A stretch of DNA of 64,000 bases from a virus (IMGVR_UViG_3300044739_000018:1-64000), one strand, 5' to 3'. Shown: positions 9,271 to 52,961, counted from the stretch's first letter. A program made the numbers and translations. Notes: generated by a model not told the origin, from the sequence alone.

Positions 9271-9728
9271 CCGACTACCGCCGCGCCATCATCCACCAGA
9301 GCACCCAGCGGCCCGCTCCACGGGCAGCGTTCTCACCCTTTGAGAACCGTCGCGCCGAGGTTGATCGCCAAGATGCCATGGGCATCAGCAACCACAGGAT
9401 CTCCGGCTTTTTGACCGTGCTTGGCGCCGGGGAAGTTGCCGTTGACGTGCCATTCCCGCTCTGGTTCGTGGAGAAGCCAGCCTTCAGCTTTGGCGGCGAA
9501 CTTGCTGAAGGCCACTCGGCCGAAGCTCTGAACATGCCGACCGTCTCGTGCGTCGTATTGCGTTGGGCAACTCAGACGCGGGAGATGGCGACCTACTGGA
9601 CCGGAGCCAACCTCGCCGTGGTTACCACCGGCAAGGAAGATCACTCCATGGTCGTGCATTGGCACATGGAGGGCAAGGCGTTTGTGAATCCTGTTGCTGG
9701 CGACGGCGGTACGGATGCGGCGATCTAA
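9267..9728 (+). CDS. Putative minor tail protein
   Basis: Translationally coupled ORF within the tail module. Confidence 0.5.
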   Translation: MTDYRRAIIHQSTQRPAPRAAFSPFENRRAEVDRQDAMGISNHRISGFLTVLGAGEVAVDVPFPLWFVEKPAFSFGGELAEGHSAEALNMPTVSCVVLRWATQTREMATYWTGANLAVVTTGKEDHSMVVHWHMEGKAFVNPVAGDGGTDAAI

Positions 9729-32769: not shown

Positions 32770-33151
32770 GCGGCCACTGCAAGTTCTGCTACGCAGTCAT
32801 GGAGAACGTGGACCATGATAAGTGGTGGTGCCCTGAGTGCCTCAAGAGGAAGGTCAAGCAGGCGCGGCTGGGCGAGTGCCGGTGCGGGCAGGTTGAGGGC
32901 GTACACGAGCACACGGCCCCGCCAGAGCTAACGGCGACCGAGATTCAAGAACGACGAGCGCGAGAAAATCTTGACAAGTAACGCCCACTTCTCCCTGTCC
33001 GTATGGAATGCAGAAGGCGAGCAGATCGACCGACAGTCGAAGCTCACGGTGTGGGACGCGGTGGCGCAGGCGCAGGCAGCGCAAGACCGCGGATGGATGG
33101 CGAAGGTGACACCCATGGTGCCCGAGAAGGTGCAACTACGGACGCGCCGTA

Positions 33152-33192
33152 GGAAAATTTAGCCCCCGGGAACTTGGGACTTTGAGTGTTGA
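33152..33192. repeat. 41-bp dispersed repeat, copy 1
   Basis: GGAAAATTTAGCCCCCGGGAACTTGGGACTTTGAGTGTTGA; aligns without gaps to the copies at 42315, 47563 and 52175. Confidence 0.8.
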
Positions 33193-33735
33193 TTCAACGC
33201 CCGTTCAAGTTCCAGGCACCGAAGGCGCAAGAACTCCTTCTCCGCATCACTTTCTTCAAGCTTGCGCGTGATTATGGCGAGCGAACGCGTGATCATTTCC
33301 AGGCGGTGGATCATTTCGACCTCGATGTTGGTCGGTCTGTCGTTCGCACGGATCACCGGGTCCCGCTTGCCGTACTCGTAGATGTCATGGTCCCAGGACC
33401 CGTAGTCGTAGGAGGGCGCGTTGCTGCGCTTGAACGGGTTGTTCGACCCAGGCGCGGGCGGGTCAACTATCGGCATGAGCTTCCTCCGGGAGCCAGCACA
33501 GTTCGCAGACGTTGTAGGCGCGGTGGAACTTCTGGAAATCATGAGGCTCTACGCGCGCGTGCTCAACCATCGTTGACTGCAACACGCCGAGCAAACCCCA
33601 GGGATTGTCGAGACGAATGAACAGTCGTTCTCCGTCATCAGGCCAGTGCCATAGGCCGACGACCTTGCCCCCTTCCACCATCACGTCAAGTCGATTGCCT
33701 GTGGTGATATGGGTGCCCGCGCCGGTCGTCGTCAC
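33159..33735 (-). CDS. Two hypothetical proteins (33159-33476, 33463-33735), the last genes of the minus-strand arm
   Basis: Overlapping minus-strand ORFs with SD sequences. Confidence 0.5.
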
Positions 33736-42154: not shown

Positions 42155-42314
42155 CGGTACCTCCCTGTTACGGTTTGGTTTGGTTTGTTATGCGGGGCCG
42201 AGAAACGTGTAGCGCCACAGGCCCCCGAAGGAACCTGCGATCCCGTTCTCGGGAACGCCTCCCGACCCCGCAGTTCAGTTTGCACGAGGATTCCACGCTT
42301 CGCAAGCTGGCAAA

Positions 42315-42355
42315 CGAAAATTTGCCACCCCGAAGCTCGGGAGTCCCAGTGTTGA
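42315..42355. repeat. 41-bp dispersed repeat, copy 2 (intergenic)
   Basis: CGAAAATTTGCCACCCCGAAGCTCGGGAGTCCCAGTGTTGA. Confidence 0.8.
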
Positions 42356-42356
42356 C

Positions 42357-44937
42357 TTACGGAGCGGGCGGCTCCAGGATGGCCCGGATCAGTTCTTCTG
42401 TGAGGAAGTCCAGACCTGTCGCATCTTGGTTGACCAGCTTGTCGTTGCGCTCCAGCACGGCACGCACGTTGATGCGCAGCATGGGGGCGATGGCTTGGAA
42501 CAACTGCTGTTGCATGTTGCTCAGCATGTTCAGGAAGTCGGGCGGTAGGTCAGGTTCCATGCTTCTCCTTCAAGTTACGGATGTACTCCTCGACGTGCTT
42601 ATCCTCCAGGAACTCCTCGACTATATCCATCACGAGGTTCGTGACGTGGGAGTACTCGTTCCCATAAGTCGGTGAGGCGTAGGCTCCGCCGCCCTTGGTG
42701 CAGGTCTTACAGAGGTAGCTGCTGTCGGTGTCCTGTGACATGGTGTCCAGGCGGACACTGTGGTGCCTGACAACATCAGCGATGGCCGCTCGCAGGTCCT
42801 TCATTGCTTCGGCAGACATCTGTAATGAAAGAAGCGCCCGCACTCCAACTCCATGCAGTCGTCGTACTTGTGGATCAGCTCGGAGCACCCTTCGCAGGTG
42901 CGTGTGGTGTGGGCCATCAGTCCATGTCGATGGCGTAGCGCGGGCCTTCGCTGGCACGTGACCGCCAGTCTCGGGCAGCACGACGGACGTTCTCCAGTTC
43001 GTCCTGCCGACGCCGATGATTGTGGCTGTCGTAGGAGAGCGTGGGGTTGTGGTCGGTGTTCTCGTACACAGAGACGGACGATGAGCCAAGGACGGCGGTC
43101 ACCCAAATGACCACACCGTCTGGCCCCTTGACGAGCACGCTCTCGAAGTCCTTGAGAACGTGGTCACAATGCTGGTCGTCTCCGAACTCTCCCTCACAGA
43201 CCTTGCACTTGCCTTCCTGGCCTTCGTACTTGTGGTCAGCCATCAGATCAGGATGGCAACAGCGATGAGAACGGCTGCGATGAGGATGAAAAGGCGCGTA
43301 ACCCACACGACGCCCTTGTTCAGCGGTTCGTTGCTCATGATTCCTCCATGTCGTTGACCGGGCGAAAGCCGTGGCAGTGGTCGACCCACGTGCGCCGCCA
43401 TCTTGACCAGCGCATGCCTCCTACTTCGTTGGCCCCGTAGGTCAGGCACTCTCCGTAGAAGGCGCCGCCGTCTCGGGCGATACTCGTGTGATGCCTCGTG
43501 GCAGTGCAGCCGCACTCGCAGAGAGCAACGGGGCTGTTGGCCCTCATCGGTTCCTCTCCACGTATGCGGCTGTTGCTGCGTCCATAGCAGCAATGAGTCC
43601 GTGGTCCTCGTAGGTGAAGGCGAACCGCCGGATGTCATTCCACCGGTGGCGTTCGCTCACCAGCAGCTTGCGGAGCGACTCTACCTGCCTGGCCTGCTCC
43701 CCAAGGGCCACCTCGCGCTCCACAACGTCGGCGTAGAGCACGCTGGCCTCCTGGTTCAGCTCCTGGATCACGGGCCAGATGGCATTGGTGCAGAGCGTGA
43801 CGACTTTGAGTTTCATGGGATGGTCCCACCAGTCGGGGACCTTGGCGTCTACGGCGTAGGAGAGCAGCCGCTCGATGTTGTCCCTGTCCATGGACTCAGC
43901 CATTGATCGGCACCACCTTGTGCTCCTTGTGGATGGAGCAGAAGTATGGGATGTGCTCCGTCGTGTTTGGGTTGCGGGCCAGGTACCTGCATTGGCAGAA
44001 CCTCTCCAAGTACCCGCGGGTGAACCCCATGATCCTGAACAGAGCGACGGCCTCGGACTCATGCTTGACCTGCTCGATGGCTGGTGCCGTGATGCCATCC
44101 TTGATGAACTCGAACACCCATTCCTCGGCGTTCTCGTCGCGTCCTTCCTGCGCAGCACGGGCAACGTCGGCCAACGAACGTGGCCCACCTTCTTCACCCA
44201 AGAAAAGCAGGCACTGACGGATGCCCTTTGCAACTTCCTGGACGAGCCGGTCCATCACCGGGTCGTCAAACAGCAGGTCATCGGACACGGAGGTACTCCT
44301 GGATGGCCGCGCTGATGGCCGGGGGACGAATGCGATCCTTGTGGATGCGCTCGGCCACGTTGATGGCTGCCTCTAGGGCGGCAGGGTTCAGTTCTGAGTA
44401 GGTCTTGTGCGGGCGCACGGCTGACCGGAACCAACGCCGCTTCTCCCGCAGGCCGGGTGGTGTGGGCGGGCACTGATCCATGCCCGAGTGCATGCCGTTC
44501 GTGCCATGGCAGTTCGGGCAGATGTAATCGTCATTCCACTTTGCCACGTCGCCTCCTTTCCTCTGAGTAGGCACGAACCTCGTCGTACCAGGCTTGGTTG
44601 TGCGGTTCGTCCTTGCCGCGGTGGCAGGGGCAGATACAAAAACCACCCCCAGCAACGCCGCGAGCACGCTCGGACGCCGTGGGGGTGTTCTCGTACCTTT
44701 CGCACTCCCCATGGTCCTCGTCCATACAGGAGTCGGACACAAAGGGGTAGGCCACTACGCCGCTCTGTCGTGCCTGCTGCCGCGCTTGAGCAGACCACGC
44801 GTGGTTGCCCACAGCACGGTGCCCAGGCCGATGATGAGCACCGGCACGCCGAAGATGCGGAAGCGGTACAGAACCGCAGCAGCGAACCACGTTGCCGCGA
44901 TGCACGCGATGAGGGAGAACCAGTCGCCCTTGTCCAT
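42357..44937 (-). CDS. Cluster of roughly ten small hypothetical proteins, many Cys/His-rich (e.g. 42357-42560, 42550-42819, 42917-43243, 43335-43547, 43544-43903, 43896-44288, 44755-44937)
   Basis: Contiguous coupled minus-strand ORFs; no recognisable domains. Confidence 0.45.
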
Positions 44938-45308
44938 TAGAAATCACCTCCGCCGCCACCACCGGAGTCGAAGCTGCCTCCGCCCGAGTCGTATGAGGAC
45001 CCCGAGTCGTAGCTGCTCCCACCACTGTCGTAAGACGAGCCGCCCCCGTCGTAACCGGACGAGCCGCTGTCGCCGCTGGAGGACTCGGAGCTGGTCTCGG
45101 CCGGGGCACACTCGGTGCTGGCCTCAGAGGCCGTCTCCGTGGCCTCAGGGGCACAATCAGCGTCCCGAGGCTCCTGGTCGGTCCTGTTGGAGTTGTCGAT
45201 GTAGAGCGGGTTCACGTACCCCGGGTGGAGCATGGTGTTGGTGGTCGTCTGCTGCACGAAGGGCCTACTCGCGGGCCGGTTACGCCGACGCCGAAACCAG
45301 TTTCTCAT
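44937..45308 (-). CDS. Small protein with a low-complexity S/G/D/Y tail (SSYDSGG repeats ending GGGGGGDF)
   Basis: SD AGGAGG; start ATG 45308; tandem SSYDSG repeats. Confidence 0.6.
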   Translation of the reverse strand: MRNWFRRRRNRPASRPFVQQTTTNTMLHPGYVNPLYIDNSNRTDQEPRDADCAPEATETASEASTECAPAETSSESSSGDSGSSGYDGGGSSYDSGGSSYDSGSSYDSGGGSFDSGGGGGGDF

Positions 45309-46605
45309 TGCCTTCCTCCTTGAAGAATGAACGTTGAAGTACTCGTGTCTCGTGGGCTGTCGGTCCATAGGATGTCAGGACCACGGGCCTGCTCAGGTGA
45401 TGCTCGATCATGTCAAGGTACGCCGACTTCGACACGTTCGTCAGGACCGGCAGGAAGTCCTTCATCAGCAGCGTGGTGTCACGCCCGCCGAGGTAGTAGT
45501 CACCCGGCACGACGCCACTCGGAGCGTCGTAGCTGGTGCAGATCGGCATGCCTTCGTCGGGCACGCGGTCCATGTGGGTGACAGCGAGGCCGTCAACGTC
45601 GCTGGCTGTGATGGCGTACTGCAACACGGGTAGGTCCAGGTGGCCGTTGCGCCATGCTCCCTGCCAAACGCCCGCCCCGTTGTGCAGCTCGGGAATGTCT
45701 CGCGTCATGTGGAAGTCCTCGGTCACCATCGGACCCGGGCCATGCCTCGTGGTGTAGGAGCGGATCACACCAAGGACGGTGACGTTGCGCCGCGTTCCGG
45801 TACCACTCAGCAACTCCAGGGCGTTGTGTCGTGTGGTCTTGGACCACGTGGTGTAGGGGTGGAAGCCGAACTGTTCATCCAGCAGCACGCCCTGTGCCCC
45901 CTCGAACACGATGTTCTCGTAGTTGCGAAGCGGATTGCCTGCCTCGATCTGAACGACGTTGCCGAAGTCAGCGTAGGCGTCCAGCCATTCCTTCATCTTC
46001 GGGTAGAGAATGTTCTCCATGGCCTGGCCCCACATGTCCTTGTCCACCGTGCGGGGCACTTCGAACTCGCCCACCGCATCCTTGGCGTACCGGAGGAATC
46101 GTTCCAGCATGACCTGAGAAAGCACTCGGTCAGTCAGGTGTCCGACGCGCAGGACTGATTCCCACCCGGAATGCGACTGGTGGATGCGTCCTTCTCCGAC
46201 ACCCTCACCCGTGGACCCATGCCGGTCAATCCCTCGGCTCAGTTCCCGCAGTCGATTGAGCGACTTGTGGGCGGGCGTGAGGACCATGGCTCGCGTGTCG
46301 ACGTGCAGCATGGAGAACGGGTCCTTCACGCCTACCGAACGCAGGTGCTCGGCTTCCTTGAAGGCGTTGAGGGGGTTCACCATCATGAACTTCGACAGGT
46401 AGGTCGAGGACCCGGCAAGTGTGCCCGCACCGAACTGCGAGAAGGTGTGGTGCTTGCCATCCCACGTCACCACGTTGTGAGCGGCTTGTGGCCCGCCGCA
46501 ATAGCGGACCACAAGCGCGCCTCTCTGCTGACGACAGAGGAAGTCAACAACCTTCCCCTTGCCAGCGTCACCAAAGCCAAGGTCAACAACGACCGTTGCC
46601 TTCAT
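45280..46605 (-). CDS. Adenylosuccinate synthetase-like (PurA-like) protein with a divergent substrate loop
   Basis: LGFGDAGKG, GGPQAAHNV, HGSTGEGVG, FEGAQGVLLD..FGFHPYTT, YTTRHGPGP, THMD, SYGP. Confidence 0.85.
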   Translation of the reverse strand: MKATVVVDLGFGDAGKGKVVDFLCRQQRGALVVRYCGGPQAAHNVVTWDGKHHTFSQFGAGTLAGSSTYLSKFMMVNPLNAFKEAEHLRSVGVKDPFSMLHVDTRAMVLTPAHKSLNRLRELSRGIDRHGSTGEGVGEGRIHQSHSGWESVLRVGHLTDRVLSQVMLERFLRYAKDAVGEFEVPRTVDKDMWGQAMENILYPKMKEWLDAYADFGNVVQIEAGNPLRNYENIVFEGAQGVLLDEQFGFHPYTTWSKTTRHNALELLSGTGTRRNVTVLGVIRSYTTRHGPGPMVTEDFHMTRDIPELHNGAGVWQGAWRNGHLDLPVLQYAITASDVDGLAVTHMDRVPDEGMPICTSYDAPSGVVPGDYYLGGRDTTLLMKDFLPVLTNVSKSAYLDMIEHHLSRPVVLTSYGPTAHETRVLQRSFFKEEGNEKLVSASA

Positions 46606-47540
46606 CGGGTCAGAGCAGCCTCGACGGCCTTGATGGTCACGTCCTCGGTCTCGTGCTCACGCAGGTGCTCCAGTCCCTCGGAAAGCTCGATGGCCTCCTC
46701 GGCAAGCCCCACGGTCACAGCGATGACCTCGGCCACGCTCTCACCGCGGTCGTCCAGCAGGATGACGTTCTGCCCGAGCAGACCCTGCCATGCCTTGATG
46801 ATGGCGTCCTGGCTGCCGCTGTCGGTCGCAGGGATGAGGACGTAGACCTCGTACTTCTCCTGCAACTCGGCAAGGATGTCGGTGGTCGGGATGTTGTCGG
46901 TGATCTCGTCACCGATGACACGCCGGACCTCGCGAGCCTTGACCTGCGGGTAGGGAGCCTCGTCACCGATGATGAAGGCGTAGCCCTTGTGCTGACGCTT
47001 CTCGAAGCACTCGATGTAGGTCTTGCGGGCGAGGTAGTACATGCCCAGCTCGTAGGACTCGTAGCCCCAGCCGCCGCCGTTGCCCTCGATGAAGATGTTC
47101 TTCAGGTGCTCGTCCATGCGGTTGTCCGCCTCGAACTGCGCCATCTGGAGCGGCACGCGGTCAGACGTGGCGTCACCGACAGCCCCGAACATGATCTGCG
47201 GGTCCTCGACGTAGCCCTTCATCTGCACCAGCCCCAGCAGGGCGGGCAGCTTCTTCAACAGCGTCTCCGGGATCTCGCCCATGCTGCCGGTCACGTCGAA
47301 CAGCACGGCCACAGCCACGCTCTTGGGATGCTCCGGCAGGTCCATGGACTCGCGGATGTTGTCGCCAGCGTGAACGCCGTTGTTGTTCACGCTCTTGGGA
47401 TCGAGCGTCTCGTGCGCCTTCCACTCTGTCATGCCACGGCTGCGAGTCGTGTCGGTGTACTCGAAGCCGCTCTTGCCGGAACGCAACGTCGCACCAGTGG
47501 TGCTGGCGTAAACGTCCGTTGACCAGTTTCCTCCGCCCAT
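46602..47540 (-). CDS. von Willebrand factor A domain protein
   Basis: MIDAS-like FDVTGSM, GAVGDA, EGNGGG..ESYEL, IIGDE; start ATG 47540 with SD AGGAG. Confidence 0.8.
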   Translation of the reverse strand: MGGGNWSTDVYASTTGATLRSGKSGFEYTDTTRSRGMTEWKAHETLDPKSVNNNGVHAGDNIRESMDLPEHPKSVAVAVLFDVTGSMGEIPETLLKKLPALLGLVQMKGYVEDPQIMFGAVGDATSDRVPLQMAQFEADNRMDEHLKNIFIEGNGGGWGYESYELGMYYLARKTYIECFEKRQHKGYAFIIGDEAPYPQVKAREVRRVIGDEITDNIPTTDILAELQEKYEVYVLIPATDSGSQDAIIKAWQGLLGQNVILLDDRGESVAEVIAVTVGLAEEAIELSEGLEHLREHETEDVTIKAVEAALTR

Positions 47541-47815
47541 CAGCTTTCTCCTTGGTTGTGTTCGAAATTTCGCCCCACCGGGGGTTGAGAGTCTGAGTGT
47601 TGACTCTCGTTGATGAGGGTCCGTTGCTGCCGAAGAAGCAGCCAGAAGTACAGCCACCCAAACGGGACCATGAATAGGCCCATCACGAAGGCGTCAGCCC
47701 AGCCGATGTCCGCGGCCCACCCGCTAAAGGCGATGTTCACCAAGCCGGTGAGTGTGCAGGCACCGATGCTGCCAAGCAGTCCGTGAAGGACTGGTCGTTC
47801 GTGGAGCAAGCTCAT
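47540..47815 (-). CDS. Small two-TM membrane protein between the kinase-like and VWA genes
   Basis: Hydrophobic; overlap-coupled on both sides. Confidence 0.55.
   Translation of the reverse strand: MSLLHERPVLHGLLGSIGACTLTGLVNIAFSGWAADIGWADAFVMGLFMVPFGWLYFWLLLRQQRTLINESQHSDSQPPVGRNFEHNQGES
47563..47603. repeat. 41-bp dispersed repeat, copy 3
   Basis: CGAAATTTCGCCCCACCGGGGGTTGAGAGTCTGAGTGTTGA. Confidence 0.8.
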
Positions 47816-48597
47816 GCCATCGAGAAGGGTCGGAACCGGCGCGGCCCATACAGGCGCTCCAGAAGGTCGTCGAAATGCTCCTTGATCTGCCAAGGGTGGG
47901 CAGCCATCGTCGGCATCAGCATGGCGTTGAAGAAGGCGCGGTACTCCTTCGGGATGCCGTCAGGAATGGAGCCGTACTTCGGATCACCGCCCATCACATA
48001 GAGCATGGTGCGGGCAGCCATGGCGAGGTCCATCTGGTGGTACGCCTCGTGGCCGAGCACGGTCTTGGGGTACCAGTCCAGGTACTCCTGGCTCCAGAGG
48101 GTCTGGGGCATTTCCTCCATAGTGGAGTAGCACCAGTCCACGAGGACCAGCCCGTGCATTTCCGGGTGGATCATCACGTGGTCGGGCACGATGGCTCCGT
48201 GAACGAACTGCTGTTCATACGCGAAGCCGAGGACTACCAAGAGACGCCGAAACATCCAGGCCATATCCCTTGGGTCGATACCTCCAGGATACCGCGTCAG
48301 CACCTGCTTTAGCGAGTAGAAACCGTCCAGGTGAGTGAAAGCGTTCACCCACTTGCCGCCATCTGTGACGAAAGTCTCATGGAACTCGGGCAAGTAAGGC
48401 ACAAGCCTCGGGTCCGGTTCGTCCAGCAGCATCGAGAGGATCGACGCTTCCTTCGCGACGTGGCCTTCCTTGCCATCGTCGGACACCTTCAAGGCGTAGT
48501 AGTCGCCGTCCTTTAACGCACGGTAGATGGTGGCTTCCTCACCTTGCGCCGTCTCGTCGAGCAGCAGGTAGCTGCCCACCTGGTCACCGGGTTGCAT
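47812..48597 (-). CDS. Ser/Thr protein kinase-fold protein lacking the catalytic Asp (pseudokinase-like)
   Basis: YALKV (VAIK), KEASIL, catalytic loop VHGAIVPDHVMI, LVDWCYS (DFG position); start ATG 48597. Confidence 0.75.
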   Translation of the reverse strand: MQPGDQVGSYLLLDETAQGEEATIYRALKDGDYYALKVSDDGKEGHVAKEASILSMLLDEPDPRLVPYLPEFHETFVTDGGKWVNAFTHLDGFYSLKQVLTRYPGGIDPRDMAWMFRRLLVVLGFAYEQQFVHGAIVPDHVMIHPEMHGLVLVDWCYSTMEEMPQTLWSQEYLDWYPKTVLGHEAYHQMDLAMAARTMLYVMGGDPKYGSIPDGIPKEYRAFFNAMLMPTMAAHPWQIKEHFDDLLERLYGPRRFRPFSMA

Positions 48598-48753: not shown

Positions 48754-49390
48754 CTAGTCGTCCAGGTGGCTACGGATGGCCCTGTAGGCGTCCTCGCGGG
48801 TCTTGGTCCGACCACGGTGGTAACCGCGGCCGGGGATCTTGTAGTCGAAGGCGAACCAGCCCGCTTCCTCGTCAATCAGCCGGTCCAGGGCCTCGTCGGT
48901 TGTGTCGAAGCGCAGCACCTTCTCACTCATGCGTTGGCCGGTTCCTTGACCTTGGTGTAGCCGTAGATGACGCCGTTGCCGAACTCCCAGAGGATGCGAC
49001 CGTAGTTGCGGGTCACGTATCCCTGGGCGTTGCGCTGCGAGCCAAAGGCGTGGTACTCGGTGATCCTCCGGTTCGGGCCGTGAATCTCCACGAGGTGAGC
49101 ATCGTTCTCTTTGGTGATCGTGGCAAGCCACATGTATCCCCGCGGGATCGGCGTAGTGCGAGGAGTGTGGGACATCAGCCTCTCCTTGTGATCTTGTTCT
49201 TGACCAGTGCTAGGGCGTAGAGCGCCGATCCGATGGCCGCGATGACGCCAGCTATCAGCGCCATCGCAAGGCCAAAGGAAAGGAACGCCACAATGATTGG
49301 GATGAACAGGAGGATGAACGGGACAGCGTGGAAGCCAGTGAGCCTGACTGTCGTGGTGCCGTCGTCGTTGCGAATCCTCTGGACTGCCAT
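48754..49390 (-). CDS. Three small hypothetical proteins (48754-48930, 48927-49175, membrane protein 49175-49390)
   Basis: Coupled ORFs. Confidence 0.5.
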
Positions 49391-50328
49391 CAGTGCTTCA
49401 CCAGTCCGAGCATCTGCACGACGCTGCTCTCGAAGATCTGGAGACGGCTGTGCGTGTTGTCGAGCGTCTGCTCCAACAGGTTGCCGTACTCCTTCGTCTT
49501 GCCGGTGAGGGCGTGGTACTTGTTGAGGTACTCCTGGTACGCCTTCTCCGTGATCTTCTGCCCGCTGGTCTGGATCTCCTGCATCTTGACGAGCAGGCTG
49601 TCGATCTCGTCCGCGGTCTCGGCCTCGAAGGCACGCTGGAGCATTTCCCTCTGCTTGGTGTCGTCCACCAGCGGGAACTCCGAGCACGAGGACCCGTTGC
49701 CGAGTCCGTTCACGAACTCCTCGACGGCCTGGACCTCAGCAGCGAATTCCTCCGGCACGAAGTAAAGGCCGTTGCGAACGACGGTGGCACCGAGTCGGAT
49801 GATGAAGTGGCGCACCCACTCCCGCACCGTGTACCCCGTGACGCTGCCGCGCTGGCTGTTGTACTTCTGCTGCATTTCGGCGGCGATCACGTCGGCCATC
49901 GGGTTGCGGTAACCCGGCAGAGCGAGAGCCTCGAACTTGCCGCCAGCCTTCTCGAACGTCACGTCGTATGCCTGGTCGTAGGTGAGCCTGCGCCCGCCAC
50001 CGTCGACCTGCTCCACGACGATGCGGCGAACGATCTTGCCGTTGCCCTCAGGCACGTCGCGGACGAGGAAGTTCTCGTAGACGTTGGGGTTGCTGGTCGG
50101 CTCCTTCTTGCGCTCGCACTCCTTGGTGACACGCCGGAACGTGTCGGAGTCCTTCGGCATGAGAGGCAGGCTCTTGTCGATGCCTGCGGCCACCAGCCTG
50201 CGCACCACTTCGCTGTGGTCCATGCGCAGGTCGTTGACGGTGTAGTACACCAAGCGGCCGAGGAACATCTGCTTTCCGGCATTGGCCGCGTTGATGAGAC
50301 GCGTCTGCAAGTCGCTGTATGCGCTCAC
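49390..50328 (-). CDS. DUF6744/DUF3150-like protein
   Basis: LGRLVYYTV, P...D.FRR, GLYFVP, helical C-terminus; family assignment from recall only. Confidence 0.55.
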   Translation of the reverse strand: MSAYSDLQTRLINAANAGKQMFLGRLVYYTVNDLRMDHSEVVRRLVAAGIDKSLPLMPKDSDTFRRVTKECERKKEPTSNPNVYENFLVRDVPEGNGKIVRRIVVEQVDGGGRRLTYDQAYDVTFEKAGGKFEALALPGYRNPMADVIAAEMQQKYNSQRGSVTGYTVREWVRHFIIRLGATVVRNGLYFVPEEFAAEVQAVEEFVNGLGNGSSCSEFPLVDDTKQREMLQRAFEAETADEIDSLLVKMQEIQTSGQKITEKAYQEYLNKYHALTGKTKEYGNLLEQTLDNTHSRLQIFESSVVQMLGLVKH

Positions 50329-51774: not shown

Positions 51775-52174
51775 CGCCTCGACCTCCCATTGGATCCGAC
51801 TCTTGAACTTCTGCCGCGGCAAGTTCAGCCTCCATCTTCACGAGCTTGGCAGCGGCGGTCTCGACCTCGCGCATCGTTGGCGCGGGCGCTGCGTGTAGCT
51901 CATCGTGCAGGATCGACTCGGTTTGGTTCTCGGTCTGGAAGTTGCACTCTTGGCACACCCAGGCCCGCGTGGGCGGTGGTCCCATCAGGAGCGGCCGCTT
52001 GCCACAGGTTGCTGCGTGGTGGGTGCCCATGCGAATGTCGTTGAACCCCTTACCACAGCCAGGACACGTGTACTTCTGCGGCTGCTGCGGGTGGAGGGCG
52101 TAGACCACATGGCGCGTCAGTTCGGCATTGTTCCTAAATGCCTGGCCGCAATACACGCAGTCATACGTTGGCAT
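51767..52174 (-). CDS. Protein with three C2H2-type zinc fingers
   Basis: YDCVYCGQAF...HVVYALH; YTCPGCGKGF...HAATC; WVCQECNF...HDELH. Confidence 0.7.
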   Translation of the reverse strand: MPTYDCVYCGQAFRNNAELTRHVVYALHPQQPQKYTCPGCGKGFNDIRMGTHHAATCGKRPLLMGPPPTRAWVCQECNFQTENQTESILHDELHAAPAPTMREVETAAAKLVKMEAELAAAEVQESDPMGGRGGE

Positions 52175-52961
52175 CGGAATTTTGCCCCACCGAGAGTTGG
52201 GAGGTTGAGTGTTGATTCAACATCCCCTTCACGACCTCGGTCTTGCGGGCCTCCAGGTCGATCACTCGCTGTTCCAGAACGGGCGTTAGCGAGAGCACTT
52301 GTGTGACTTCCGCCAGTACGGCCTCGACCTCGGGCAAGTTGCCCGTCTCCACCGTCTCGTCGATGCGAGACAGCAGGGAGGCAAAAGACGACTCGGGGTT
52401 GAGCGCGACAGGAAGCGCGTCATCCATCATGTCGTTGACCTTGTGTCCGTCGTCGGCCTCGCGCTGCATGAGCAGGCGGGCCTTGGCGACCGCGTCCTGC
52501 TTCGTGCGGGCAAGAGTGTGGAGCGAGTAGCCCAGGTGATTGCCCTTGCTGCTCACGCGTCGGACACCCACGGCGTAGTGCTGCATGTTGTACCACTGCG
52601 CGTGGTTCCCGGCCGCCCCCAACAGCCATCCCTTGTAGCGGGTGCCCTTCACGAAATCTTCCGCGCCTGCGTAAGAGCGTGAGAACACGTAGATCTGCCA
52701 CTCGACTCGCGGCTTGCGGACTACGCCAACGGGGATGATCTCGTCGTCAGGCAGGTCCAACGAATCCAGGTGCTGCCGCCAATAGCGGCTTGTGGCCTTG
52801 CCGATCTGGCCGTCCCTCTTGTAGCGGGTGTAGAACTGCGCTCCACAGTCGCAGACCCAGTAGACGTTGTACTGGTTGATCTGCGTCTCAGTCAGACTGT
52901 GCCCTGGCCTGCCAGGGGCGAATCCAACCTCTGCGGCGGTCTTGCCGGTGAGTGTCGCCAT
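52161..52961 (-). CDS. Hypothetical protein
   Basis: 266-aa coupled ORF. Confidence 0.55.
   Translation of the reverse strand: MATLTGKTAAEVGFAPGRPGHSLTETQINQYNVYWVCDCGAQFYTRYKRDGQIGKATSRYWRQHLDSLDLPDDEIIPVGVVRKPRVEWQIYVFSRSYAGAEDFVKGTRYKGWLLGAAGNHAQWYNMQHYAVGVRRVSSKGNHLGYSLHTLARTKQDAVAKARLLMQREADDGHKVNDMMDDALPVALNPESSFASLLSRIDETVETGNLPEVEAVLAEVTQVLSLTPVLEQRVIDLEARKTEVVKGMLNQHSTSQLSVGQNSDANV
52175..52215. repeat. 41-bp dispersed repeat, copy 4
   Basis: CGGAATTTTGCCCCACCGAGAGTTGGGAGGTTGAGTGTTGA; abuts the ATG of 51767..52174. Confidence 0.8.

Follow-up and report, generated by a model that had tools for sequence, protein, structure and literature searches.

What might an enzyme of the adenylosuccinate synthetase (PurA) family make when its aspartate-binding loop has been replaced, and why would a phage encode it next to a VWA protein and a pseudokinase? 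The question is raised by the genome of a large soil phage (complete record, 163 kb), studied here through a window, the whole stretch of DNA that was analyzed, of 64,000 nucleotides.

Gene Order and Coupling

A first-pass annotation of the window described five overlap-coupled minus-strand genes, and this set is present at 44937-48597, where the genes are translationally coupled:

47812-48597, minus strand: kinase-like gene, 261 aa, Shine-Dalgarno GGGGAGG
47540-47815, minus strand: small ORF with two hydrophobic stretches (2-TM ORF), 91 aa
47555-47606, no strand assigned: copy of a dispersed ~52-nt repeat (family D1), from a repeat search
46602-47540, minus strand: VWA gene, 312 aa
45280-46605, minus strand: PurA-like gene, 441 aa, a ligase paralog of the PurA family (PF00709)
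44937-45308, minus strand: Ser/Gly/Asp-rich gene, 123 aa, strong Shine-Dalgarno AAGGAGGA

The stop codon of the kinase-like gene overlaps the ATG of the 2-TM ORF (ATGA), the 2-TM stop codon overlaps the VWA start (TGATG), and the VWA stop codon overlaps the PurA-like start (ATGA). The Ser/Gly/Asp-rich gene overlaps the PurA-like gene by 29 nt at the 3' end of the latter. A ribonucleotide reductase is also encoded in the window.

Distribution of the Module

The kinase-VWA-PurA neighborhoods that the first-pass annotation placed in actinobacterial genomes do exist, and their synteny is strict in a survey of 80 actinobacterial loci, so the genes do co-occur outside this phage. The PurA-like gene lies directly after the VWA gene in 78 of these loci, and it follows the VWA gene in 78 of 80 viral loci whose GC content spans 0.30-0.71 (30-71%). 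The kinase-like gene was found in 72/80 actinobacterial loci and the kinase cluster in 53/80 viral ones; some viral loci carry the VWA and PurA-like pair alone. The invariant core of the module is this pair and not the trio, with the kinase-like gene as a frequent third member. Phage Rizal has the same gene order as the soil phage (gp250-253), and the pair is present in Vibrio and Rhizobium phages.

The PurA-like family is mainly found in bacteria, where the module is a chromosomal operon of sporadic occurrence (13 of 301 sampled Actinomycetes genomes). Most viral neighborhoods of the module hold unrelated accessory genes. Neither the VWA nor the PurA-like protein matched a PADLOC defense family, and our literature search found no paper describing the module.

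Lineage-Specific Genes and a Dispersed Repeat

The first-pass annotation included the 2-TM membrane protein in the system, which comparison with related phages does not support: the ORF is missing from the closest relative (L173), and three other small genes take its position in a second. The ORF is open and overlap-coupled at both ends, and it matched no family in Pfam, PHROG or NCBIfam; it does not belong to the conserved genes of the module. Its 3' end contains, immediately upstream of the VWA start codon, one of the four dispersed D1 copies (at 33144, 42307, 47555 and 52167), and the same element precedes the VWA gene of L173 although the small ORF is absent there.

The Ser/Gly/Asp-rich protein is of low complexity, running from a basic N-terminus (MRNWFRRRR) through (S-S-Y-D-S-G)-type repeats to a terminal Gly run. 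L173 has a gene of like build at the same place. The two proteins gave no BLASTP alignment, and tblastn returned no match to the gene in the other 80 viral loci; the gene is restricted to this phage lineage.

The Kinase-like Protein

The AlphaFold2 model of the kinase-like protein (pLDDT 93.7) has the bilobal fold of Hanks-type protein kinases, with a TM-score of 0.79 to M. tuberculosis PknA/B. The protein matches PHROG 3043, "kinase" (E 1.2e-26), and Pfam Pkinase at a sub-threshold level only (15.4 bits, where the cut-off is 31.7). At the HRDxKxxN site it reads VHGAIVPDH, bearing out the report of an HGA loop without the catalytic Asp. This is a family trait, as H133-G134-A135 is found in at least 116 of 121 members and the catalytic-loop Asn is His in 111 of the 121, while K37 (the VAIK Lys), E50 (the alpha-C Glu) and D154-W155 (D154 being the DFG Asp) are kept. 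Identity is 32% to the operon partner from Streptosporangium and 30% to Rizal gp250. Most kinase-like partners, a point absent from the earlier annotation, carry an N-terminal J-domain; bacterial and cluster C mycobacteriophage homologs have one, but the soil phage protein lacks it, and the J-domain HPD motif occurs only in the Streptosporangium and Rizal homologs.

A MIDAS-type vWA gene beside a Hanks-type kinase-fold gene recalls the TerY-P triad, which Anantharaman, Iyer and Aravind reportedly described in 2012 as a conflict or stress module of vWA, kinase and PP2C phosphatase. The present module differs in that the whole kinase-like family lacks the catalytic Asp and the third partner is a PurA-family ligase; targeted tblastn queries revealed no phosphatase partner.

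The PurA-like Protein and Its Probable Chemistry

The PurA-like protein matches PF00709 (E 4.3e-62; 210.6 bits, cut-off 27), its best PDB sequence matches are all PurA, and it has fold and family in common with PurA (EC 6.3.4.4; E. coli structures 1ADE and 1KJX). It nevertheless scores far under the curated cut-offs for PurA (NF002223, 169.1 bits against 402; TIGR00184, 157.2 bits against 395.55) and for PurZ (NF038379, 52.5 bits against 300). A Streptosporangium homolog reaches 136 and 114 bits with the PurA models, and two actinobacterial genomes hold a canonical purA beside the paralog. Both lines of evidence uphold the first reading of the protein as neither housekeeping PurA nor PurZ. Sequence identity is 42% to cluster C phage homologs and 41% to the Streptosporangium homolog.

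PurZ, the succino-2-amino-deoxyadenylate synthase of Z-genome phages, is likewise a phage-borne PurA paralog with changed substrate use, and it is the source of the database labels on the cluster C phage homologs. PurZ has Ser at the P-loop Asp position, which is retained as Asp in the PurA-like protein. PurZ also still uses aspartate, whereas the aspartate site is gone here, and the PurA-like family belongs mainly to a bacterial chromosomal operon. No MazG-family match was found in the complete 163-kb phage record, and neither this result nor the chromosomal setting in bacteria speaks for a link to virion DNA modification.

All the motifs first quoted for this protein (GDAGKG, GGPQAAH, EGAQG, ELHNGAGVWQGAWRNGHLD and THMD) were found in its sequence. 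Aligned with E. coli PurA, it keeps D13, K16, H41, Q224 and D333, that is, the GDxGKG P-loop with its catalytic Asp and Lys, the catalytic His, the Gln of EGAQG and the T-x-x-D guanine contact. Changed positions are N38 to Q, R131 to E, R143 to E, T300 to W, T301 to Q, R303 to A, R304 to W and K331 to H, the position of R305 falls in a gap, and TRVG becomes TRHG. The aspartate loop GxTTGRxRRxGW of PurA is replaced by HNxxxxWQGxFRxG.

The residue pattern is conserved in a comparison of 124 members of the subfamily, among them the copies from Rizal and from the Vibrio and Rhizobium phages, and in a 30-row alignment (A3); the aspartate-binding residues are replaced throughout the subfamily. The equivalents of D13, K16, H41 and Q224 are invariant among the 124, further subfamily invariants are N309, W314, Q315, R319, Q40, H288 and R128-H129, and the consensus at the aspartate-binding positions is HNxxxxWQGxFRxG and G-S-C-G-[MQE]-G. 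Among the ligands of the IMP 5'-phosphate, N38 is replaced by an invariant Gln, T239 is kept, T129 is kept in the phage protein but is Cys in most members, and R143, contributed by the other subunit, is Glu here and not conserved; the new invariant pair R128-H129 could replace the lost ligands. The guanine-contact Asp (D346; E. coli D333) is invariant beside a variable Lys position (H/G/C/N), and the C-terminal contact S412-x-G414-P415 (E. coli S414-G416) is kept in alignment A3. As judged from these residues, the guanine-specificity elements are retained.

The observed folds, residue patterns, synteny and distribution lead us to a proposal about chemistry, partner roles and biological purpose. 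An unusual purine nucleotide is probably what the module makes, or attaches to something else. The best explanation overall, although we hold it with only about even confidence, is a GTP-dependent ligase that has the VWA protein as its obligate partner and would couple a 6-oxopurine nucleotide to some amine that is not aspartate. The ligase probably binds GTP and phosphorylates the O6 of the nucleotide, because the P-loop Asp and Lys, catalytic His, base-contact Gln and guanine-binding Asp are kept. The attacking amine would be something other than aspartate, since the aspartate loop has become a conserved H-N-x4-W-Q-G-x-F-R-x-G and the arginines are lost. The first-pass annotation likewise proposed a different amine or a protein lysine as acceptor. 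The nucleotide may not be IMP, because several 5'-phosphate ligands are altered. The VWA protein would either present the second substrate or be that substrate. The pseudokinase would regulate or scaffold the pair, and its J-domain, where it has one, would recruit DnaK; since some of the loci lack the kinase-like gene, the core reaction cannot depend on it.

The VWA Protein as a Possible Substrate

The AlphaFold2 model of the VWA protein (pLDDT 88.9, pTM 0.89) has a Rossmann-like VWA fold, and Foldseek matched it best to integrin beta I-domains and to SpaC, a pilus adhesin (probability 1.00, E down to 1e-7). The protein matches PHROG 2971, "unknown function" (E 2e-76), and it hit no Pfam family at E <= 0.1 and no NCBIfam family at E <= 0.001. 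A metal-binding motif of the MIDAS type, D-V-T-G-S ... G-D-A-T ... I-G-D-E, is invariant or nearly so among 26 homologs, with Thr in place of the first Ser of the DxSxS ... T ... D pattern. Some of the cluster C phage copies carry an intein just ahead of IGDE.

The N-terminus of this family is also conserved. A VWA profile matched 2273 cluster representatives (50% identity clusters); the match starts at residue 1 in almost every member, and that search showed no fusion at the N-terminus. Met-Gly starts 132 of 150 family representatives (50% identity), and the remaining 18 are either truncated or have a start that was called a few residues upstream of the true one. An M-G-x-[GST] start is found in 78/80 bacterial copies and almost all viral ones, including copies that begin with GTG, TTG or ATC. 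The N-terminal 8 residues are predicted by AlphaFold2 to be disordered.

These features would fit protein purinylation, an alternative that we consider unlikely. A 6-oxopurine nucleotide activated with GTP would be moved onto the alpha-amino group of VWA Gly2, exposed once the initiator Met is removed, leaving an AMP-like (N6-linked) nucleotide on the N-terminus, and the modified VWA protein would be the functional product. The lost carboxylate-binding arginines and threonines fit an amine without free carboxylates, and the constant adjacency of the VWA and PurA-like genes also agrees with such a role. We infer every step of this scheme, however, and the conserved Met-Gly may instead serve stability, docking or autoinhibition. 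We know of no such modification. If purinylation did occur, it would be an undescribed post-translational modification, in bacteria under NrtR-type control, that has been borrowed by hundreds of large phages.

Regulation and NAD Context

In 75 of the 80 actinobacterial loci the operon is headed by a Nudix-wHTH (NrtR-like) gene, which the first-pass annotation did not mention, and 20 loci have another Nudix gene after the operon. The Nudix box of the NrtR-like protein is intact, and the protein resembles an ADPR-responsive repressor model, scoring 121 bits where the equivalog cut-off is 400. Conserved operator repeats (GTTnTTCTCA / GAGAA) were found upstream of the NrtR-like gene in 57/75 loci. 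This arrangement is like that of NrtR regulons, and proteins of the NrtR family sense ADP-ribose (PMC2330246; PMC13464706). The lead gene and its own operator repeats suggest that the Actinomycetota operon would be under an ADP-ribose-type signal of NAD+ breakdown.

The viral loci offer further links to NAD, of a contextual kind only. The NrtR-like gene occurs in 8 of the 80, a NADAR gene lies near the pair in a Vibrio phage, NMNAT/Nudix and a phosphoribosyltransferase-like gene lie near it in a Rhizobium phage, and NAMPT occurs in one neighbor cluster. NAD-salvage or ADP-ribose genes near the module in some phages are reminiscent of NARP1-3, the NAD+ reconstitution pathways of phages, and it is conceivable, if improbable, that the module is a further route, analogous in function to these, by which NAD+ is rebuilt or protected, or ADP-ribose processed, after an NAD+-depleting defense. 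There is, however, no obvious place for PurA-type chemistry in NAD+ synthesis, and it does not follow from control by an ADPR sensor that the product is itself an NAD metabolite. The module contains no NARP enzyme, and neither it nor its PurA-like and vWA genes are mentioned in the NARP papers searched. Nor did the soil phage genome yield any match to NUDIX, the NrtR wHTH or NAPRTase, and the actinobacterial operator pattern was not found near its module.

Catalytic and Non-Catalytic Alternatives

A quite unlikely alternative to the proposed ligase is that the PurA-like protein is a non-catalytic switch, a GTP- and purine-nucleotide-sensing subunit like other SIMIBI-class NTPases. As part of a system for sensing or conflict, it would control the VWA protein and the pseudokinase/DnaK arm. 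Retention of the nucleotide-binding elements with loss of the second-substrate site would suit such a switch, as would partners with typical adaptor or regulatory folds (VWA, pseudokinase, J-domain) and the sporadic distribution, which is that of an accessory system. But the catalytic base (D13), acid (the H41 equivalent) and Q224 are invariant in the subfamily, a sign that the chemistry has been retained. The loop that took the place of the aspartate loop is also under strong conservation, as expected of a substrate site, and the lack of a PADLOC match for either core protein likewise counts against this alternative.

A divergent true adenylosuccinate synthetase, or a PurZ-type enzyme for 2-aminoadenine DNA, acting as an auxiliary metabolic gene in ordinary purine metabolism, is very improbable: the PF00709 match, the label "2-aminooxy adenylosuccinate synthetase" that PHROG 1211 and RefSeq give to the homologs, and the ribonucleotide reductase in the same window favor it, but the aspartate ligands R131, T300, T301, R303 and R304 are all replaced across the subfamily, the PurA and PurZ models score far below cut-off, the P-loop Asp is kept, the phage genome has no MazG or adenylosuccinate-lyase match, bacteria holding the paralog also have a true purA, and the constant VWA pairing is left unexplained.

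Implications for the Phage

The gene module of which the soil phage has a copy is widespread and apparently undescribed. The phage would have dropped the NrtR-like control seen in bacteria and would express the genes from its minus-strand accessory arm. By this means it presumably tunes a nucleotide- or NAD-linked state of its host cell, in a role that might be auxiliary metabolism or counter-defense.

Gene layout of the module

The viral record containing the window is complete (163,481 bp, with direct terminal repeats), and the window, with a GC content of about 60%, is its first 64 kb. Genes for a primase-helicase, a Sak4-like protein and ribonucleotide reductase were found in the plus-strand arm, and the module sits inside an accessory arm encoded on the minus strand from about 39 kb onward. 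The first-pass annotation described coupled minus-strand genes at 44937-48597; five genes with overlapping junctions are indeed encoded there, and all of the sequence motifs it quoted are present in the window.

Genes of the module
47812-48597, minus strand, kinase-like gene, translationally coupled
47540-47815, minus strand, 91-aa hydrophobic ORF with two transmembrane segments (2-TM ORF), translationally coupled
46602-47540, minus strand, VWA gene, translationally coupled
45280-46605, minus strand, PurA-like gene, translationally coupled
44937-45308, minus strand, Ser/Gly/Asp-rich gene, translationally coupled

The junctions read, in order, ATGA, TGATG and ATGA, and the Ser/Gly/Asp-rich gene shares a 29 nt overlap with the PurA-like gene. 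Upstream of the kinase-like gene, at a distance of about 0.8 kb, lies a DUF6744 gene (49390-50328, minus strand), whose position two related phage contigs share.

Conservation of the gene set in phages and bacteria

The actinobacterial kinase-VWA-PurA neighbourhoods that the first-pass annotation had mentioned were recovered in a survey of 80 loci from different species, in which the order NrtR-like, kinase-like, VWA, PurA-like was almost invariant. A PurA-like gene was present at 78 of these loci, the NrtR-like gene at 75 and the kinase-like gene at 72, with gaps falling mostly at contig ends. The PurA-like gene also followed the VWA gene at 78 of 80 viral loci spanning GC contents of 0.30-0.71; a kinase-like cluster lay upstream of the VWA gene at 53 of the 80, and at some viral loci the pair clearly stood alone. 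Cluster C mycobacteriophages, such as Rizal, have the order kinase (gp250), VWA (gp251), a 90-aa gene (gp252) and PurA-like (gp253), and in Vibrio and Rhizobium phages the VWA gene adjoins the PurA-like gene. These synteny counts, from bacterial and viral loci alike, argue that the VWA and PurA-like pair is the core of the module, with the pseudokinase as a common third member.

The gene upstream of the VWA gene in the Vibrio and Rhizobium phages was considered as a kinase and rejected; its place is taken by a different, Met-rich protein common to both phages (L007:4243-4962 and L008:3774-4568, respectively; 39% identity). In the Vibrio phage a NADAR gene also lies upstream of the pair, and a gene for an Rv2179c-like exoribonuclease follows closely downstream.

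The VWA family comprises 2273 representatives at 50% identity; relatives are encoded on 175 viral contigs and in at least 595 matched stretches of species-representative bacterial genomes. The distribution of the module is sporadic, with 13 positives among 301 sampled Actinomycetes genomes. A megablast comparison of the locus with phage records other than its own gave no match.

The PurA-like ligase

The PurA-like protein matched PF00709 (Pfam, E 4e-62), and in an HMMER alignment to E. coli PurA, from which residue numbers are taken, D13, K16, H41, Q224 and D333 were retained and eight other positions were substituted (N38 to Q, R131 to E, R143 to E, T300 to W, T301 to Q, R303 to A, R304 to W and K331 to H). 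The changes are not drift: in an alignment of 124 relatives, among them the copies from cluster C mycobacteriophages and from Vibrio and Rhizobium phages, the changed places hold invariants specific to the subfamily (Q40, R128-H129, H288, N309, W314, Q315 and R319).

Curated HMM cut-offs were used to separate PurA, PurZ and PurA-like proteins. The window protein scored 169 bits against a cut-off of 402 and 157 against 395 with the curated PurA models, and 52 bits against a cut-off of 300 with the curated PurZ model. Canonical purA genes (about 600 bits) were found alongside the paralogue in two actinobacterial genomes, and the phage genome had no match to the MazG family or adenylosuccinate lyase.

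The name "PurA-like" or "2-aminooxy adenylosuccinate synthetase" is attached to more than 200 genes of cluster C mycobacteriophages (e.g., NC_011272 gene 253), and the latter label is carried by homologues in the PHROG 1211 family and RefSeq. Judged by residues and HMM scores, neither enzymatic name is supported. The synthetase labels look like over-transfer from PurZ, because the models reject the protein, its residues are changed, purA exists separately and matches to MazG and adenylosuccinate lyase are absent.

The VWA partner and the kinase-like protein

An AlphaFold2 prediction for the 312-aa VWA protein confidently gave a VWA domain (pLDDT 88.9) whose best structural matches were integrin beta I-domains and the SpaC adhesin. 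The protein had no Pfam or NCBIfam family and matched only unnamed clusters in the ESM Atlas. A MIDAS-type motif is retained (D-x-T-G-S, G-D-A-T, I-G-D-E). Some cluster C mycobacteriophages and relatives (L001; P0428, P0479) carry an intein/homing-endonuclease-like insertion, annotated as an HNH endonuclease, within the VWA gene, which it splits immediately before I-G-D-E. Inteins tend to occupy functionally critical sites, and the position of this insertion thus suggests that the MIDAS motif is important.

The N-terminus of the VWA protein is also conserved. Met-Gly starts were found in 132 of 150 representatives, the other 18 being fragments or having start calls too far upstream, as well as at 78 of the 80 bacterial loci and almost every viral locus, and Met-Gly is kept in copies that start at GTG, TTG or ATC codons. 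The profile match begins at residue 1 in almost all members, no N-terminal fusion was seen among the family members matched by the profile, and disorder is predicted for residues 1 to 8. A complex prediction for the PurA-like and VWA proteins scored 0.00, which we counted neither for nor against binding.

The kinase-like protein was predicted to have a standard Hanks kinase fold (pLDDT 93.7), with a TM-score of 0.79 to M. tuberculosis PknA/B. In an alignment of 121 relatives the ATP-binding Lys, alpha-C Glu and metal-binding Asp (as D-W) are retained, the catalytic-loop Asn is mostly His, and HRD is replaced by H-G-A, so that the catalytic-Asp-free loop first noted in the window holds family-wide. 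By these patterns it is a pseudokinase throughout the family, or a non-canonical kinase at the least. Bacterial homologues and Rizal gp250 have a J-domain with an HPD motif at the N-terminus; the window protein begins at the kinase domain and has no J-domain.

Regulation and the NAD context

The gene that leads the bacterial operon encodes an intact Nudix box and an NrtR-type wHTH, and its product resembles an ADPR-responsive repressor model, scoring below that model's cut-off. AT-rich repeats in GC-rich DNA were found upstream of this gene at 57 of 75 actinobacterial loci, and are likely the operator of the Nudix-wHTH protein. They lie about 30-290 bp upstream (L009-L088) and have the form GTT[CG]TTCTCA, 4-6 nt, GAGAAnnnCTCA, 4 nt, GAGAA[CG]AAC. 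At 20 actinobacterial loci another Nudix gene comes after the operon, and in some phages NADAR, NMNAT/Nudix, NAMPT or NrtR-like genes lie beside the pair.

The genome of this phage had no match to NUDIX, NrtR wHTH or NAPRTase, and the only match to the actinobacterial operator pattern in the window, at 9330, is no better than chance and lies a long way from the module. PADLOC assigned no defence family to the VWA or PurA-like proteins and gave only generic matches for the kinase. Neither the NARP1/2 preprint nor the NARP3 paper, both on phage NAD+ reconstitution pathways, mentions the module. Table 1 of Rodionov et al. (2008; PMC2330246) lists NrtR-regulated unknown genes "nrtX-nrtY" in Streptomyces, Frankia, Kineococcus, Proteus and Hahella; as that paper presents them, they are divergent in Frankia alni, whereas the module is a co-directional operon.

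Genes and elements outside the core

The first-pass annotation had counted the membrane protein as a module member, which did not hold: the 2-TM ORF is absent from L173, the closest relative, and in another relative three other small genes occupy its position.

A ~52-nt element (plus-strand consensus CGAAAxTTxGCCCCxCCG...GAGTGTTGAxTC) occurs in four co-oriented copies in the window (33144-33195, 42307-42358, 47555-47606 and 52167-52218). One copy directly precedes the VWA start codon, where it is kept in L173, and the element may be a promoter, operator or RNA-processing signal separating the kinase gene from the VWA/PurA-like pair.

The Ser/Gly/Asp-rich protein (44937-45308) has a basic N-terminus, four to five S-S-Y-D-S-G repeats and a Gly run. 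BLASTP gave no alignment with its positional counterpart in L173 (7244-7669), probably because of low-complexity composition; read directly, the counterpart has the same basic N-terminus, S-S-Y-D-S-G repeats and Gly-rich end. No counterpart was found at more distant viral loci, and the gene is a lineage-specific addition. As integrin-type MIDAS sites typically bind x-D-S motifs, the protein might serve the adjoining VWA protein as a multivalent ligand, which is pure speculation.

Proposed mechanism

Starting from the demonstrated residue patterns, folds, synteny and distribution, we propose that the ligase would still bind GTP and activate a 6-oxopurine nucleotide, since the catalytic base, catalytic acid, P-loop and guanine contacts are invariant. 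The nucleophile would be something other than aspartate, because another set of conserved residues stands in for all those that bind carboxylate, and the VWA protein would be required for the reaction or be its target. One specific and rather improbable candidate is the free alpha-amine of Gly2 of the VWA protein, which would take the place of the aspartate amine.

One alternative is that the module serves an NAD/ADPR-linked pathway; the NAD/ADP-ribose link holds for the family as a whole but is indirect for the window locus. Another is that the PurA-like protein is a non-catalytic nucleotide switch, to be weighed against the same invariant catalytic residues. Ordinary PurA or PurZ activity fits least: the first-pass annotation had judged the protein to be neither housekeeping PurA nor PurZ, and indeed both sets of curated models reject it and its aspartate-site residues are replaced.

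Significance

To our knowledge, PurA chemistry has been re-used only in purine synthesis (PurA, PurZ and the toyocamycin enzyme ToyG), always with aspartate, whereas the window subfamily appears to have discarded aspartate and become locked to a VWA partner. No description of the module was found in the searchable full-text literature. Should the proposed ligase reaction yield a novel nucleotide or signal, or a modified protein, it would add a reaction to nucleotide biochemistry and account for a gene set mis-annotated in more than 200 mycobacteriophage genomes. Because of its recurrent tie to an ADP-ribose-type regulator and NAD-salvage genes, the module may be one of the players in the arms race that phages and bacteria wage over NAD+.
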